NCBI GenBank assembly: GCA_040006455.1
Contig: JBDTWY010000016.1
Span: 3,834-67,833 of the forward strand
Direction: 5' to 3'
Length of the DNA stretch: 64,000 nt
From: Betaproteobacteria bacterium
GTDB taxonomy: Bacteria; Pseudomonadota; Gammaproteobacteria; Burkholderiales; Casimicrobiaceae
Below the pieces are notes generated by a model. The model did not search any database. It worked only from the letters and a program-made list of their open reading frames with translations, and was not told the DNA's origin. The position numbers were made by a program, and so were the translations under genes. Positions 1,241-25,678 of the stretch are shown one piece after another. Within the stretch, counting starts at the first letter, position 1. Each line of letters begins with the position of its first letter.

Positions 1241-3842
<2,602 letters not shown>

Positions 3843-4085: not shown

Positions 4086-5168
4086 ATGTCGGCGACGGGG
4101 GAATCGCGGTCTTGTGCCTGGCATGCGGTGGGCGGCGCGCCCTCGCATCGGGTCGGCGGATGGCGGGTATCGCGTGTGCGCGCGAAGCGCAGGTTCGGCA
4201 TTTCGCGCCGCGGCGTCATCGTCGCGGCGACCGCGTTCGCATGCGCCGGCCAGGCGTTGCTTGCGCATGCGCAGTTCGGCGACAGGCCCGTGACACTGGT
4301 GGTGGGCTCGTCGCCGGGCGGCGGCGTCGACCGTACCGCGCGGCTGCTGGCGCCCGAGCTTGCGGGGCAGCTTCACCAGAACGTCATCGTCGAGAATCGC
4401 GCCGGCGCGGGCACCCGGCTCGCCAGCGAATACGTGGCCAAATCGGCGCCCGACGGACGCACGCTGCTGTTCACCACCGGCGAGTCGACGATCGACCTCG
4501 CGTTCGATCCGCAAGCGACTCCCAACATCCTGAAGGACCTGGTGCCGGTATCGCTGGTCGCCGTGTGCCAGATGCTGCTCGTGATCAACGCGTCGCTGCC
4601 CGTGCGCGACGTGACGGAACTGCTGGCGCGCGCTCGCGCGGCGCCGGGCAAGCTCAACTATTCGACCGCGGGCGTCAAGACCACGATGCACCTCGTCGGC
4701 GCGCTCTTCGCACAGCGCACCGGCACTGACATCGTGCACATTCCCTACAAGGGCACCATGCCGGCGCTGGCGGCGCTTATGGCGCGCGACGTCGACATGA
4801 CTTACGCGTCGTTGCCGTCGGCGCTGCCGTTCGTCGAGTCGGGGAGGCTGCGCGCGCTGGCGGTGGCAGGCAGCCGGCGGTCGTCGTTGATGCCGGACGT
4901 GCCGACCTTGGCGGAGTCCGGGGTCACGGGCGTCCAGGCGAATATCTGGTACGGATTGCTCGCGCCCGCCGGCACGCCGGCCGACATCGTCGACGCGCTC
5001 GCTCGCGCCGTCAACGCGGCGTCGCGGTCGGCCGATTACCGGCAGAGCCTCGCGACCATGGGAGAGGAGCCGTCGCCGGGCACGCCGGCCGCGTTCGGCG
5101 AACTGTTGCAGGACGATGTGAGCAAATACGGCGCCGTCATCAGGGCCGCCCGGATACCCGCCGAATGA
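4086..5168 (+). CDS. Bug/TctC-family periplasmic solute-binding protein (tripartite tricarboxylate transporter receptor family)
   Basis: Family-typical strings: PVTLVVGSSPGGGVDRTARLLA, NRAGAGT, HIPYKG, NIWYGLLAPAGTP. A strong SD (GGGAGGTGG) precedes the ATG at 4086. An in-frame GTG at 4176 would give a shorter signal peptide. Confidence 0.85.
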   Translation: MSATGESRSCAWHAVGGAPSHRVGGWRVSRVRAKRRFGISRRGVIVAATAFACAGQALLAHAQFGDRPVTLVVGSSPGGGVDRTARLLAPELAGQLHQNVIVENRAGAGTRLASEYVAKSAPDGRTLLFTTGESTIDLAFDPQATPNILKDLVPVSLVAVCQMLLVINASLPVRDVTELLARARAAPGKLNYSTAGVKTTMHLVGALFAQRTGTDIVHIPYKGTMPALAALMARDVDMTYASLPSALPFVESGRLRALAVAGSRRSSLMPDVPTLAESGVTGVQANIWYGLLAPAGTPADIVDALARAVNAASRSADYRQSLATMGEEPSPGTPAAFGELLQDDVSKYGAVIRAARIPAE

Positions 5169-6193
5169 CCATAGTCCGATGTCTTCCAAAGTCGGTGCGC
5201 TGCGCCAGCGCGCGCGCAGCCGTCGTCGCTGGCAACGCGGTCGTCGCGCTGGTGGCCGTTTGCATGTTCGGTGCCCAGCCGCTGCCGGCGCGCGCGGCAT
5301 TGGGCGAGCAGACGGTGACGCTGGTGCTGAGCAGCGCGCCCGGCGGCGGTATTGATCGCATGGCCCGGCTGCTTGCGCAACGGCTCTCCCAGCAACTCCA
5401 TCGCAACGTCATCATCGAGAACCGGCCCGGTGGCAGGTCCAGGCTCGCGGCCGACCATGTGTCGAAAGCGCCAGCGGACGGCAACATGCTGCTGATCACG
5501 ACGGGAACGTCGACGATCGACCTTGCGTTCGACCCGCGCACGCGCCCCAACGTGATGCAGGATCTGGTGCCCGTATCGTTGCTCGCGAAGTGCCAGATCG
5601 TGCTGGTCGTGAATCCGGCGCGGCAGCTCACCACCGTGCAGGCGCTCGCGGCGCGCGCGCGCGCCGCGCCGGGCACGCTCAACTCGGCCACGTCGGGCGT
5701 GATATCGACGATGCGCATCGTGTCGGAGCTTTTCAGGCAGCGCATCGGCGCCGACATCGTGCAGATTCCCTACAAGGCCGAAGTGGAGACGTCGACCGCC
5801 GTCGTCGGCGACCGTGTCGACATGGCATTCGTTACGCTGCCCTCGGTGCTGCCGTTCGTGAATTCGGGACAGGTGCGCGCACTGGCCATCGCCGGCGCAC
5901 AGCGTTCGCCGATGATGCCCGGCGTGCCAACGCTGACCGAATCCGGCCTGCCAGGCATCGAGGCGACGGTTTGGTACGGATTGTTCGCGCCGGCGGGCAC
6001 GCCCGCCGACGTCGTCGACGCGCTCGCGCGCAGCGTCGAGCAGGCGTCGACATTCCCCGGCTACCGGCAAGGCCTTGCGGCGATGGGCATGGAGCCCGCA
6101 CCGATCGCGTCCGCAGCCTTCGTCGCGATGCTGCGCGACGAAGTGGTCAAGTTCCGCGCCGTCATCGAGACCACGAACATTCGCCCCGAATGA
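5165..6193 (+). CDS. Bug/TctC-family periplasmic solute-binding protein (paralog of the upstream gene)
   Basis: Same family strings: TVTLVLSSAPGGGIDRMARLLA, NRPGG, QIPYKA, VWYGLFAPAGTP. Its ATG overlaps the upstream stop (ATGA at 5165-5168). Confidence 0.85.
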   Translation: MTIVRCLPKSVRCASARAAVVAGNAVVALVAVCMFGAQPLPARAALGEQTVTLVLSSAPGGGIDRMARLLAQRLSQQLHRNVIIENRPGGRSRLAADHVSKAPADGNMLLITTGTSTIDLAFDPRTRPNVMQDLVPVSLLAKCQIVLVVNPARQLTTVQALAARARAAPGTLNSATSGVISTMRIVSELFRQRIGADIVQIPYKAEVETSTAVVGDRVDMAFVTLPSVLPFVNSGQVRALAIAGAQRSPMMPGVPTLTESGLPGIEATVWYGLFAPAGTPADVVDALARSVEQASTFPGYRQGLAAMGMEPAPIASAAFVAMLRDEVVKFRAVIETTNIRPE

Positions 6194-8817
6194 CGATGTC
6201 GCCCATCGACGCCAAACCCGCAATCGACTCCTGCGACCTGCCAATGAATGCACCGATGCCACTGCCTGCCGGCGCCGCGACAAGCGCGGTCGAAACCATC
6301 GCGACCCGGCTCGCGCGCTTCGCGCAACGTTCGCCCGACGCCGTCGCGCTCATCGACAGTGACGCGCGCGTGACATGGGCGGATCTCGACGCCGACGCCA
6401 CGGCGATCGCGCGACGGCTCCTCGACATCGGCAATGGCGTCAACGGCCATGTGTGCCTGTTCTTCCGCGACAGGCGATCCGCGGTGGCGTCCATTGTCGG
6501 CACCGCACGCGCGGGAGGCGTCTACATACCGTTCGATCCCGCCGATCCGGAGGAGCGGCTGCGTTTCATGCTCGACGATGCCGCGCCGATCGCGATGCTC
6601 ACCGAACCGTCGCTGGTCGAGCGCGCACGGGCGCTCGCGCCTGCGGGTTGCGTGATCGTCGACGTCACCGTGCTCGAGCGCGGCGCAGCCGGCGGGGCGC
6701 TGCCGCAGGTCGACGGCAACGCGACCGCGCATCTTTACTACACGTCGGGCTCGACCGGCCGGTCGAAAGGCGTGCGCCAGACGCACGCCAACCAGCTTTT
6801 CTTCATCGACTCCTATGCCAGGGCCGTCGGCATCGGTGAAGGTGACAGGCTGTCGATGCTCTACTCGCTGAGCTTTGGCGCGGGCCTCGGCGGTATCTAC
6901 CGCGGCGTGGCGCTCGGCGCGACGCTGTGCGCGTACGACATCAAGCGCGATGGCATCGCCGGCCTCGCCGACTGGCTCGACCGCGAGCGCATCACCTCGT
7001 TGCAGACCTTCCCGATGGTGTATCGCGAGCTTGCGCAAACGCTCGGCGCCACCCGGGTGTTCCCGCATCTCGAGGTGCTGCACCTCGGCGGCGAATCGTT
7101 GTACGCGCGCGACGTCGAGCTCTTCCGCGCGCACACGGTCCCGCACTGCAAGCTCGTCCACCAACTGGCCGCCACTGAGATCAGCCTGATCGCGCAGAAC
7201 ATCCTGCGGCACGACAGCGTGCTGTCACCGGGCCCGATCGTGCCGGTCGGCCGGCCGATCGAAGGCGTGCACCTCGAGATTCGGCGCGACGACGGCAGCC
7301 TCGCGGGGCCGGACGAGCCGGGTGAGCTGTTCGCCTGCAGTCGCCACGTCAGTCCCGGCTACTGGAACCGGCCCGAGCTCGATGCCGTCGCGTTCTCCGC
7401 GGATCCGCGCGTGCCGGGCGGTCGTTGCTACCGCACCGGCGACTTCGGACGCATCGATGCGGCAGGCGACCTGCATTTTCTCGGTCGCACGGGAAGCCGC
7501 GTGAAAATCCGCGGCTACACGATCGACCTCGCCGAAATCGACGCGGCGCTCGCCGCGTGGCCGCAGGCGGCGGGCGGCGCCGCAGCCGCGGAGAGCGACG
7601 ACAACGATCCGGCGTCCGCCCGGCTCGTTGCCTACGTCGAAGCGCGTGAGGGTGCCGCACGCGATCCGGCGGCGTGCAAGCGCTTCCTCGCGGGCAAGCT
7701 GCCGCTGCACATGCTGCCGGCGGAGATCCGCTACCTCCGCGAGATGCCGCGGACCCCCGGCGGCAAGCTCGACCACAAGCGGCTTGCGGGTGCCGAGAGG
7801 CTGCCTGCGGACACGGTTCGCGCTGCGCCGAGTCGCGGCGCGGCGCCGCGTGACGCCACGCAAGCGGCGGTCGCGCACGTCTTCGAGGAGCTTCTGAAGG
7901 TCGAAGGCGTCGGTCCCGACGACGACTTCTTCCTGCTGGGCGGCGATTCGCTGATGGGCGCCGACCTGCAGGCGCGCCTCAAGGACACCTTCGGCGTGCG
8001 CATCGGCAATTTCCACCAGGATGCGACGGTGGCGGGCATTGCCGCCAGCATCCGTCGCGGCATCGCGCAGGCGCCGACGCAGTCGCGCGCGATCCCGATG
8101 CTGGTGCCGCTGTGGCCGGGCGGCCGCGAGACGCCGCTGTTCATGGTGCATGGCCGTCACGGCCAGGCATTCTTCAGCCCGCATTTCATGAAGCTGCTCG
8201 GCGACGAGCAGCCCGTGTGGGCGTTGCAGGCGCGCGGCCTCGACGGCATCAGCGAACCGCACGCCACGATCGAGGCGATGGTCGACGACTACGTGGCGGA
8301 AATTCGCAACGTGCGCCCGCACGGGCCCTATTTCCTGGGCGGCCTGTGCGTCGGCGGCTTCGTCGCCGCGGCGATGGCCCGCGCGCTGCGCGCCGCGGGC
8401 GAGGAGGTGCTGCCGCTGCTGCTGCTCGATCCTCCCAATCGCGTGCGCGCGCGTACCGAGGCACACGCCGATCCGGCGCACGTGGCGGCCAAGATGCAGG
8501 CGCGACGGGCGGCGGGCCGGATCCTCGGGCCGATGGAGGATCCCGCGTATCTCGACGCGTCGGTCCGCGCCGCAGCGGCCTTCGACGACGCGATCGCGCG
8601 CTACCGGCCGCTGCCCTATGACGGCGCGGTCTACGTGCTGTCGAGCCGCCATCGGATGCAGATGATGGATCCGCTGGAGCTGCGAACGATCTTCACCGGT
8701 CGCTACAAACGCTACGAAGTCGGGCAATCGCATGGCCATGCGCTCGACCCGCGCAATCCGGTGTTCGCGCAGACGCTGACGCGCTGCGTCGACCTGATTC
8801 GCGCTGCGTCGATCTGA
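6190..8817 (+). CDS. stand-alone NRPS-like enzyme with adenylation, thiolation (PCP) and thioesterase domains
   Basis: A-domain cores: YYTSGSTGRSKGV (A3), YRTGDFGR (A7), GRTGSRVKIRGYTIDLAEID (A8), PRTPGGKLDHKRL (A10). PCP motif FFLLGGDSLMG. TE motifs LFMVHG and GGLCVGG. The start was placed at the ATG at 6190, overlapping the Bug stop (ATGA). The 5590 start in the track lies inside the upstream gene. Confidence 0.85.
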   Translation: MTMSPIDAKPAIDSCDLPMNAPMPLPAGAATSAVETIATRLARFAQRSPDAVALIDSDARVTWADLDADATAIARRLLDIGNGVNGHVCLFFRDRRSAVASIVGTARAGGVYIPFDPADPEERLRFMLDDAAPIAMLTEPSLVERARALAPAGCVIVDVTVLERGAAGGALPQVDGNATAHLYYTSGSTGRSKGVRQTHANQLFFIDSYARAVGIGEGDRLSMLYSLSFGAGLGGIYRGVALGATLCAYDIKRDGIAGLADWLDRERITSLQTFPMVYRELAQTLGATRVFPHLEVLHLGGESLYARDVELFRAHTVPHCKLVHQLAATEISLIAQNILRHDSVLSPGPIVPVGRPIEGVHLEIRRDDGSLAGPDEPGELFACSRHVSPGYWNRPELDAVAFSADPRVPGGRCYRTGDFGRIDAAGDLHFLGRTGSRVKIRGYTIDLAEIDAALAAWPQAAGGAAAAESDDNDPASARLVAYVEAREGAARDPAACKRFLAGKLPLHMLPAEIRYLREMPRTPGGKLDHKRLAGAERLPADTVRAAPSRGAAPRDATQAAVAHVFEELLKVEGVGPDDDFFLLGGDSLMGADLQARLKDTFGVRIGNFHQDATVAGIAASIRRGIAQAPTQSRAIPMLVPLWPGGRETPLFMVHGRHGQAFFSPHFMKLLGDEQPVWALQARGLDGISEPHATIEAMVDDYVAEIRNVRPHGPYFLGGLCVGGFVAAAMARALRAAGEEVLPLLLLDPPNRVRARTEAHADPAHVAAKMQARRAAGRILGPMEDPAYLDASVRAAAAFDDAIARYRPLPYDGAVYVLSSRHRMQMMDPLELRTIFTGRYKRYEVGQSHGHALDPRNPVFAQTLTRCVDLIRAASI

Positions 8818-8840
8818 TCCGCGAGGCGTCGACCACGGCC
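8781..8840 (+). repeat. imperfect 20-bp tandem repeat (3 units) spanning the stop codon of the NRPS-like gene
   Basis: The units are gcgctgcgtcgacctgattc, gcgctgcgtcgatctgatcc (18/20 identical) and gcgaggcgtcgaccacggcc (13/20). Confidence 0.7.
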
Positions 8841-8882: not shown

Positions 8883-9452
8883 TCAGCCCGGCGCCGGCAC
8901 CCACAGCGTGGTGATGCCGAGAATCACGAACAGGATCGCCGTCGCGATGCGCACCACCCTGAACGGGATCTTTTTCGCGGCGATGCCGGCGAACAGCACC
9001 GTCGGCACGTCGACGATCAACATGCCGAGCGTGGTGCCGGCGACCACCGGCAGCAGCGTGCCGAAGCGCGACGCGAGGATCGCCGTGGCGACCTGCGTCT
9101 TGTCGCCCATTTCCGCCAGGAAGAACGCGACCGTCGTCACCCAGAACACGCCATGCGTCGACAACGCCGGTGCTTCGGACTCGTCCAGCGTGTCGGGCTT
9201 GAGCGCCCACGCGGCGACCGCGAAGAACGACAGCGCGACGATCCAGCGCAGCGTGTGCTCGGGAACGACGTTGCGGACCCATGCGCCGACGGCACCTGCG
9301 AGCGTGTGGTTGACCAGCGTCGCGGCGAGAATGCCGGCGATGATCGGCCACGGCCGGCGGAAACGCACCGCCAGCAACATTGCCAAAAGCTGCGTTTTGT
9401 CGCCAATTTCGCCCAACGCGACGACACCGGCGCTGACCAGGAACGATTCCAA
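8883..9452 (-). CDS. UPF0016/GDT1 (TMEM165)-family membrane protein, putative Mn2+/Ca2+ transporter
   Basis: 189 aa with two copies of the signature E-x-G-D-K-T motif (GEIGDKTQ and AEMGDKTQ) in a polytopic hydrophobic protein. Confidence 0.8.
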   Translation of the reverse strand: MESFLVSAGVVALGEIGDKTQLLAMLLAVRFRRPWPIIAGILAATLVNHTLAGAVGAWVRNVVPEHTLRWIVALSFFAVAAWALKPDTLDESEAPALSTHGVFWVTTVAFFLAEMGDKTQVATAILASRFGTLLPVVAGTTLGMLIVDVPTVLFAGIAAKKIPFRVVRIATAILFVILGITTLWVPAPG

Positions 9453-25325: not shown

Positions 25326-25678
25326 AATCCGAAGTCAGCCGATAAGCCGGGTTCTGTTACGGCGCGACTGTGACATCGCGCTATGACTGCCATTCCTCTT
25401 GGCGCCACGTTGCCGTGGCGCTCGTGCCGCCTACCCGCGGACTCGGCGAGCAGCGTCGTCGTCCGCCTATTTGGCGTTGCTCCGGATGGAGGTTGCCGCG
25501 TTTCACCCGCTTCCGTTTGACGGGAAGCGACTCGTCTCTGTGGCCCTGTTCCTCACTTTGGCCGTCCGCGTGAGCGGCCGGCGTATGGCGGCCGGGGGTT
25601 ACCCGGCATCCTGCTCTGTGGAGCCCGGACTTTCCTCTGTCCCCTTGCGGGAACAGCGGCAGTCTGGCTGGCTTCGGA
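25326..25678 (-). ncRNA. rnpB: RNase P RNA (bacterial type A)
   Basis: The reverse complement contains the universal GAGGAAAGTCCGGGCTCC core, a 5-prime CCGAAGCCAGCCAGACTGCCGCTG pairing with the 3-prime ACAGAACCCGGCTTATCGGCTGACTTCGG (P1), and GGGTAACCCCCGGCCGCC-type helices. Ends are approximate. Confidence 0.88.

Follow-up and report, generated by a model that had tools for sequence, protein, structure and literature searches.

In non-ribosomal peptide synthetases (NRPSs), an acid is adenylated, thioesterified to a phosphopantetheine arm and passed to the nucleophile of a thioesterase (TE) domain. To our knowledge, only three TEs with a cysteine as nucleophile have been looked at experimentally, namely those of ObiF, SulM and AB3403 (the function of the last is unassigned), and from these three grew the idea that the cysteine signals the formation of a strained ring. 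The present analysis concerns a stand-alone NRPS-like gene located in a window of 64,000 nucleotides (the whole stretch of DNA that was analyzed; positions 3,834 to 67,833 of contig JBDTWY010000016.1, assembly GCA_040006455.1) from a Betaproteobacteria bacterium of the family Casimicrobiaceae, an uncultured soil organism. Its product is composed of an adenylation (A), a thiolation (T) and a TE domain, and the nucleophile elbow of the TE domain contains a cysteine, Cys720, which almost certainly acts as the catalytic nucleophile in a functional domain. This cysteine is fixed throughout a large, diverse clade of lone A-T-TE enzymes.

The TE domains of ObiF1 (obafluorin) and SulM (sulfazecin) resemble that of the A-T-TE enzyme in being type I domains with a cysteine in the elbow. 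They form an acyl-S-enzyme thioester intermediate, which can only be presumed for the A-T-TE enzyme, and unlike it they act on substrates assembled by a condensation (C) domain, namely N-acylated amino acids with a beta-hydroxy or beta-amino group. The triad of ObiF1 consists of Cys1146, His1284 and Asp1254, with the aspartate on a later strand and Gly1173 at the EntF-like site 27 residues after the cysteine; loading of ObiF1 is said to be impeded by a triad of the EntF-like kind, and the C1146S exchange reportedly abolished product formation while hydrolysis was kept or gained (PMC6668435). SulM likewise has a relocated aspartate (“position II”), together with a Gln-Cys-Asn motif and an N-sulfonated substrate, and AB3403 of Acinetobacter baumannii (PDB 4ZXH/4ZXI) has been singled out as a cysteine TE with an ordinary aspartate at “position I” (PMC11298585). 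The latter enzyme shares with the A-T-TE enzyme the cysteine in a G-G-x-C-x-G-G elbow and the EntF-like aspartate (PMC11298585), but it has a C-A-T-TE architecture, with glycine bound by the module and an upstream carrier protein feeding it, whereas the A-T-TE enzyme lacks a C domain and has a non-amino-acid A domain.

Other comparable systems share the architecture or only the cysteine. According to PMC9047271, non-reducing NRPS-like A-T-TE enzymes condense two aromatic alpha-keto acids, and TdiA, the atromentin and polyporic acid synthetases and RalA appear as lone A-T-TE enzymes with a non-amino-acid A domain whose TE forms bonds instead of hydrolysing. The likeness to this group is one of architecture, and unlike in this group the neighborhood of the gene studied here is devoid of the usual aminotransferase and tailoring genes. 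PacP of the pacidamycin pathway is a bacterial free-standing A-T-TE protein, but its TE, being devoid of a catalytic triad, is considered inactive (PMC8748450), in contrast to the invariant triad of the A-T-TE enzyme. SyrC and CmaE, likened here by their description where they are cited in PMC8748450, have an alpha/beta-hydrolase fold and a catalytic cysteine, and move acyl groups between thiols; unlike the present TE, they are free-standing and not fused to an A-T unit.

Within the 875 amino acid protein, Pfam domains were found in the order AMP-binding (residues 42-392), PP-binding (561-605) and Thioesterase (PF00975, 649-825), the latter with a score of 72.7 bits against a cut-off of 26.4 (E 6.6e-20), whereas no C domain was found by Pfam in this protein. 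The preliminary description of the locus, made from the sequence alone, had proposed a type I TE in a lone A-T-TE enzyme, and this domain order agrees with it. Positions 8338-8358 (GGCGGCCTGTGCGTCGGCGGC) translate to GGLCVGG, with the TGC codon of Cys720 at 8347-8349. When the last 275 residues were compared with solved TE structures by phmmer, Cys720 paired with the nucleophile of each, which is a serine in 7crn (GWSLG) and EntF (GYSLG) and a cysteine in AB3403 (GGWCFGG); the reading of this codon as the catalytic position in the preliminary description was thereby borne out. The other TE motifs named there, LFMVHG, LLLLDPP (with Asp747) and GQSHGH (with His848), are all present as well, an agreement that greatly exceeds chance. 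By sequence, the TE region is most similar to the TE of “Non-ribosomal peptide synthetase 4” (7crn/7dxo; E 4e-21, aligned over residues 31-161 of the piece used as query), which shares the elbow context GPYxLxGxxxG but has a serine nucleophile and belongs to a multimodular NRPS. AB3403 was aligned over the elbow with an E value of 3.7e-15.

An AlphaFold2 model was built on a 74-sequence full-length alignment and has a mean predicted local distance difference test score of 86, which exceeds 90 near the active site. In this model, Cys720 sits between strand 714-719 and helix 722-735, inside the strand-turn-helix nucleophile elbow, as had been anticipated. Asp747 directly follows strand 743-746, His848 directly follows strand 839-845, and residues 750-813 form the two-helix lid of the TE domain. 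In the model, the placement of these three residues corresponds to the canonical alpha/beta-hydrolase arrangement, and a location of the cysteine outside the nucleophile elbow is ruled out by the model topology. The top Foldseek matches of the model were the termination modules of EntF, AB3403, SrfA-C and ObiF1.

In the region after the first TE strand (window positions 8140-8240, residues 651-685), the loop has the sequence VHGRHGQA, where an oxyanion loop of the HPxGG type would be usual. Invariant here are His654, Gly655, Arg656, Gly658, Gln659 and Ala660, and likewise a QARGLD motif that includes Arg682. Both invariant arginines could bind a carboxylate of the substrate or the phosphate of the phosphopantetheine arm.

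A homologue search with the TE region (residues 600-875) recovered 408 proteins. Among the 120 matches listed, which are 54-78% identical in the TE region, nearly all have 840-875 amino acids and the same three Pfam domains, and all 119 homologues that could be aligned have a cysteine in the nucleophile column (elbow consensus G/A-G/A/S-L/F-C-A/V/I-G). In the 74-sequence alignment, Cys720, Asp747, His848, the phosphopantetheine attachment site Ser587 and Lys526 of the A domain are invariant. The cysteine was also present in every orthologue and paralogue recovered, which came from 8 of 25 same-genus genomes, so the orthologue check asked for in the preliminary description came out in favor of the cysteine. 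A sequencing error or strain-specific substitution is excluded by its presence in every homologue and paralogue examined, and an inactive TE like that of PacP by the invariance of the triad in the 74 sequences.

A HMMER search of 1.84 billion cluster representatives (50% identity) with the TE domain yielded 13,390 matches at E ≤ 1e-10, of which the best 150 were considered; the nucleophile was scored in 146, the other 4 being already among the homologues. It was a cysteine in 107, a serine in 32 and another or unscorable residue in 7 of these nearest representatives. A FastTree phylogeny of 135 rows (at least 200 amino acids of TE sequence and a Cys or Ser nucleophile) placed the A-T-TE enzyme in a clade of 72 clusters with a support of 96, all with cysteine, whose complete members almost all have the A-T-TE size of 830-930 amino acids. 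Other cysteine clades are those of multimodular NRPSs (GGYCFGGN), and at least 10 changes between cysteine and serine are distributed over the tree, two of them forced by well-supported branches. The assumption in the preliminary description that Cys-for-Ser TEs are rare thus does not hold, given the 107 of 146 nearest representatives and the solved cysteine TE AB3403 among the closest structures; such TEs look rare only among characterized enzymes.

The A domain differs from those of amino acid-activating NRPSs at the position that anchors the alpha-amino group. HMMER alignments to both A domains of LgrA put the “fd” of their A4 core over “fg” of the A-T-TE enzyme and thus Gly230 at the position of GrsA Asp235; SFGAG thus takes the place of FDxS in the A4 core, and across the family the Asp235 position is occupied by G, A, N, S or P. 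The amino acid adenylation model TIGR01733 scored 254.8 bits, below its cut-off of 317.4. The A domain therefore has no anchor for an alpha-amino group, and without Asp235 the enzyme would not be expected to load a beta-hydroxy- or beta-amino-alpha-amino acid. By analogy to the ligands of TctC/Bug solute-binding proteins, two of which are co-translated with the enzyme, the substrate is probably a polar aromatic acid or a dicarboxylate. The A5 core (window positions 7150-7190, residues 321-334) reads HQLAATE (family consensus NQLASTE) in place of NxYGPTE, and Cys320 just upstream of it is invariant in the family; together these features form an unusual A domain signature.

The preliminary description had likened the TE to those of ObiF and SulM, an analogy that the sequence comparison does not sustain. 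Four features that define the ObiF/SulM type were compared, and only the cysteine nucleophile is shared. The aspartate is not relocated but lies invariantly 27 residues after the cysteine (LLLLDPP), the motif around the nucleophile is Leu-Cys-Val (L/F/M-C-A/V/I in the family) instead of the Gln-Cys-Asn of SulM, and the absence of both Asp235 and a C domain does not agree with the substrate loading of these enzymes. AB3403, EntF and NocB were among the 27 PDB sequence matches of the TE region (E ≤ 0.01), whereas the TEs of ObiF1 and SulM were absent from them. A TE of the ObiF/SulM type was therefore dismissed on the position of the aspartate, the motif, the A domain code and the missing C domain. 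By the criteria tested, which also include the GxCxG elbow and the position I aspartate found here, the TE groups with the AB3403-type cysteine TEs. Release of a beta-lactone or beta-lactam is unlikely because of the EntF-type triad and the lack of Asp235 and of a C domain, but the broader suggestion of an unusual release or condensation chemistry is plausible.

Table 1. Positions of the A-T-TE gene, its domains and key residues, and the two adjacent TctC/Bug genes in the window.
Feature	Position	Strand	Evidence
A-T-TE gene, NRPS-like, stand-alone, 875 amino acids	6190-8817	+	Open reading frame call, Pfam and AlphaFold2 model
Adenylation domain, residues 42-533	6313-7788	+	PF00501, E 1.8e-52
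A10 Lys526 of the A domain	7765-7767	+	Invariant in 74-sequence alignment
Gly230 at the GrsA Asp235 position	6877-6879	+	HMMER alignment to LgrA A domains; family codes
Ser587 of the T domain (GGDS), site of phosphopantetheine attachment	7948-7950	+	PF00550 at 561-605
Thioesterase domain, residues 636-875, alpha/beta hydrolase	8095-8814	+	PF00975; PDB matches; model secondary structure
Nucleophile elbow GGLCVGG with Cys720 (codon TGC, 8347-8349)	8338-8358	+	Translation, alignment and model
Asp747 (GAT), triad acid, Cys+27, EntF/AB3403 “position I”	8428-8430	+	Alignment and model
His848, triad base	8731-8733	+	Alignment and model
TctC/Bug periplasmic solute-binding protein 1 (TctC1)	4086-5168	+	PF03401, E 9.2e-70
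TctC/Bug periplasmic solute-binding protein 2 (TctC2)	5165-6193	+	PF03401, E 5e-56

The likeliest start of the A-T-TE gene is the ATG at 6190, and its stop codon occupies 8815-8817; the public gene call (P0002) uses the same frame and starts at Met23, which gives a protein of 853 amino acids. The last codons and the stop codon lie within a tandem repeat with a unit of 20 bp (8780-8834; 2.8 copies, 85% match). The C-terminus encoded by it (...RCVDLIRAASI) resembles that of the homologues (...LIRxAA...), and the repeat touches only the last few residues and no catalytic residue of the TE.

Two genes of TctC/Bug proteins, both with signal peptides, directly precede the A-T-TE gene (Table 1). The true start of TctC1 possibly lies downstream of the one given, near a twin-arginine-like signal peptide whose sequence contains SRRGVIVAATAFACAGQALLAHA. 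The stop codon of TctC1 and the start codon of TctC2 overlap in an ATGA, as do the stop codon of TctC2 (TGA, 6191-6193) and the ATG of the A-T-TE gene. Among solved structures, the terephthalate-binding protein 8hka comes closest to TctC2 (E 4.1e-45), ahead of other Bug proteins. The flanks consist of housekeeping genes, with holA, lptE and leuS on the minus strand upstream, and GDT1 (8883-9452, minus strand) directly after the A-T-TE gene followed by dsbD and a redoxin gene downstream. No aminotransferase gene was found within 6 kb on either side of the A-T-TE gene. At Rfam gathering thresholds, no upstream riboswitch that could name a ligand was found; the only Rfam match in the window was a class A bacterial RNase P RNA (25327-25675, minus strand, 207 bits).

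The arrangement is conserved, as all five orthologous loci checked (this window, L098, L099, L100/L013 and L016; at least 60% identity) have two TctC genes on the same strand directly upstream of the A-T-TE gene. Three paralogues, located on another contig of the source genome (C13) and in L101 and L107, are preceded by one TctC gene, and L014 has one convergent TctC gene downstream. The source genome, a metagenome-assembled genome of 3.8 Mb in 146 contigs, contains 25 TctC matches, 5 TctA matches and 2 phosphopantetheinyl transferases. Since there are only 5 TctA for 25 TctC matches, most of its Bug binders are orphans, and three of the 25 TctC genes, all orphans, lie directly upstream of two of its three A-T-TE paralogues. 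A chance adjacency in a Bug-rich genome was dismissed on the grounds that only 25 TctC genes, about 0.7% of all genes, are found in 3.8 Mb; the pairing of A-T-TE and TctC genes is not due to chance. In L016, a MmgE/PrpD gene adjoins a TctC gene. The syntenic loci L013 (12721-15598) and L100 (10557-13461) have an additional TctC gene and a gene for an A-T didomain protein between the A-T-TE gene and GDT1; this protein of about 605 amino acids has no TE and shares 59% identity with the A-T portion of the A-T-TE enzyme. The additional pair is absent from the window.

A second group of paralogues, with about 50% identity to the A-T-TE enzyme, is found in a different gene context. It comprises loci on another contig of the source genome (C84:80-10328) and in L102 (7579-14086) and L104 (2226-9920), and partly L014. 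Next to the loci on C84, L102 and L104 lies a gene for a large fusion of GT2 and Sulfotransfer_3 that includes a SEC-C motif; those on C84 and L104 additionally adjoin the gene of a Sulfotransfer_2 protein, and in the source genome CysN/CysC and CysD, for the synthesis of 3'-phosphoadenosine 5'-phosphosulfate, accompany them. In L014, a sulfotransferase is encoded upstream. The context of the loci on C84, L102 and L104 has the look of a gene cluster for a glycoconjugate that is acylated and sulfated.

These observations are tentatively read as those of an enzyme that transfers a non-amino carboxylic acid via a Cys720 thioester to an acceptor other than water, although this reading falls somewhat short of being probable. 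What the sequence shows is a loading module intact in its A10 Lys526 and in Ser587 and a TE with an intact Cys-Asp-His triad, unaccompanied by any domain for peptide bond formation. The A domain would adenylate a carboxylic acid without an alpha-amino group, the acyl group would be loaded onto the phosphopantetheine of Ser587 and then moved to Cys720 by an energy-neutral transthioesterification, and the acyl-S-enzyme would be resolved by an acceptor alcohol, amine or thiol. The TE would thus act as an acyltransferase, neither as a hydrolase nor as a cyclase forming four-membered rings. That a transthioesterification keeps the acyl group activated is an argument that has been made for ObiF (PMC6668435), and the same principle is at work in SyrC and CmaE, which serve as established precedents for acyl shuttling by cysteine alpha/beta-hydrolases. 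Release by an acceptor other than water is favored because the enzyme has no C domain and hydrolysis would amount to a futile ATP cycle, an acyl transfer because a glycoconjugate, as suggested by the glycosyl- and sulfotransferase genes near the paralogues, would need an acyl donor, and a polar aromatic acid or dicarboxylate as donor because of the linked Bug proteins. Several points weigh against such a transferase. The ten-residue code of the A domain, GAGQHGQLIK as read by hand on GrsA numbering, matched none of the characterized specificities that could be compared, and cysteine and serine may be functionally interchangeable in the enzyme. The TctC proteins are periplasmic whereas the enzyme is cytoplasmic, which makes the link between them indirect, and neither a TctA nor a TctB gene adjoins the A-T-TE locus. 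Furthermore, no candidate gene for making an acceptor was found next to the enzyme within the window.

Four other fates of the acyl group were weighed against this transfer. The one closest to the preliminary description, cyclization of acyl-S-Cys to a beta-lactone or beta-lactam as in ObiF and SulM, has in its favor that both characterized ring-forming TEs use a cysteine like that of the GxCxG nucleophile, and that some paralogues adjoin sulfotransferases, which recalls the N-sulfonated substrate of SulM (PMC11298585). It is nevertheless highly improbable given the invariant aspartate at the EntF-like site where ObiF1 has a glycine, the lack of a Gln-Cys-Asn motif, of Asp235 and of a C domain for the N-acylation of the substrate, and the absence of the ObiF1 and SulM TEs from the PDB sequence matches. 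The ordinary EntF-type triad geometry would rather fit a plain hydrolytic or editing TE, in which the cysteine merely replaces a serine and a free acid is released or proofreading takes place, and the repeated switches between cysteine and serine among related TEs (at least 10, two of them forced) point in the same direction. Yet activation by ATP followed by hydrolysis would be futile without an upstream module, and the cysteine occurs without exception in the 72-cluster clade; this fixation argues for selection on the thioester intermediate, and a hydrolytic function is considered unlikely.

Alternatively, two identical acyl units held on Cys720 and on the phosphopantetheine arm could be joined to each other by C-C (Claisen/Dieckmann) or C-O bond formation, with the quinone and furanone synthetases TdiA, the atromentin synthetases and RalA, or the oligomerising EntF TE, as models. 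Non-reducing NRPS-like enzymes, as described in PMC9047271, likewise combine a lone A-T-TE architecture with an A domain for acids other than amino acids, a thioester on cysteine would favor enolate chemistry, and the A-T didomain protein encoded downstream in close relatives could deliver the second unit. This self-condensation is doubtful, as the A-T-TE gene has neither an aminotransferase nor a tailoring gene next to it, the family resides in housekeeping neighborhoods and not in biosynthetic clusters, and the code seems unlike that of aromatic keto acids. The same didomain protein, encoded two genes downstream in the relatives, might also be the partner in a thiol shuttle, in which Cys720 would pass the acyl group to another thiol, such as coenzyme A or a T domain belonging to a partner A-T protein. 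Bug genes usually lie beside acid-activating catabolic enzymes, for which the MmgE/PrpD gene in L016 may be compared, and transfer from thioester to thioester is performed by the cysteine alpha/beta-hydrolases SyrC and CmaE, which are cited in PMC8748450. A shuttle is rather unlikely all the same, because the partner A-T gene is absent from the window and an ordinary acyl-CoA ligase would do the same at lower cost. The probability that is left after the transfer to an acceptor and these four alternatives falls to release mechanisms other than those listed.

In the literature searched, no paper on a lone cysteine A-T-TE family or on the pairing of A-T-TE and TctC genes was found. A tblastn search against plasmids gave no match above approximately 35% identity, and hence no annotated cultured relative there, and a scan of contigs for relatives, seeded on the generic A3 motif, recovered only NRPS modules of about 30% identity. 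The A-T-TE enzyme thus represents a deep, uncharacterized clade of lone cysteine-TE loading modules with two recurrent gene contexts. It is conceivable, if on balance unlikely, that the 72-cluster clade forms an undescribed class of ATP-driven acyltransferases or condensing enzymes for non-amino carboxylic acids, one branch of which would be wired to the Bug binders of tripartite tricarboxylate transporters, coupling the capture of external carboxylates to conjugation, and another to glycosyl- and sulfotransferases for the acylation of sulfated glycoconjugates. Because a large conserved group of cysteine TEs combines an ordinary triad with the loading of non-amino acids and the lack of a C domain, the cysteine alone cannot be used as a marker of beta-lactone or beta-lactam formation. 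The pairing with TctC genes provides a handle on the product of this family and on the ligands of the orphan Bug binders of the Burkholderiales.

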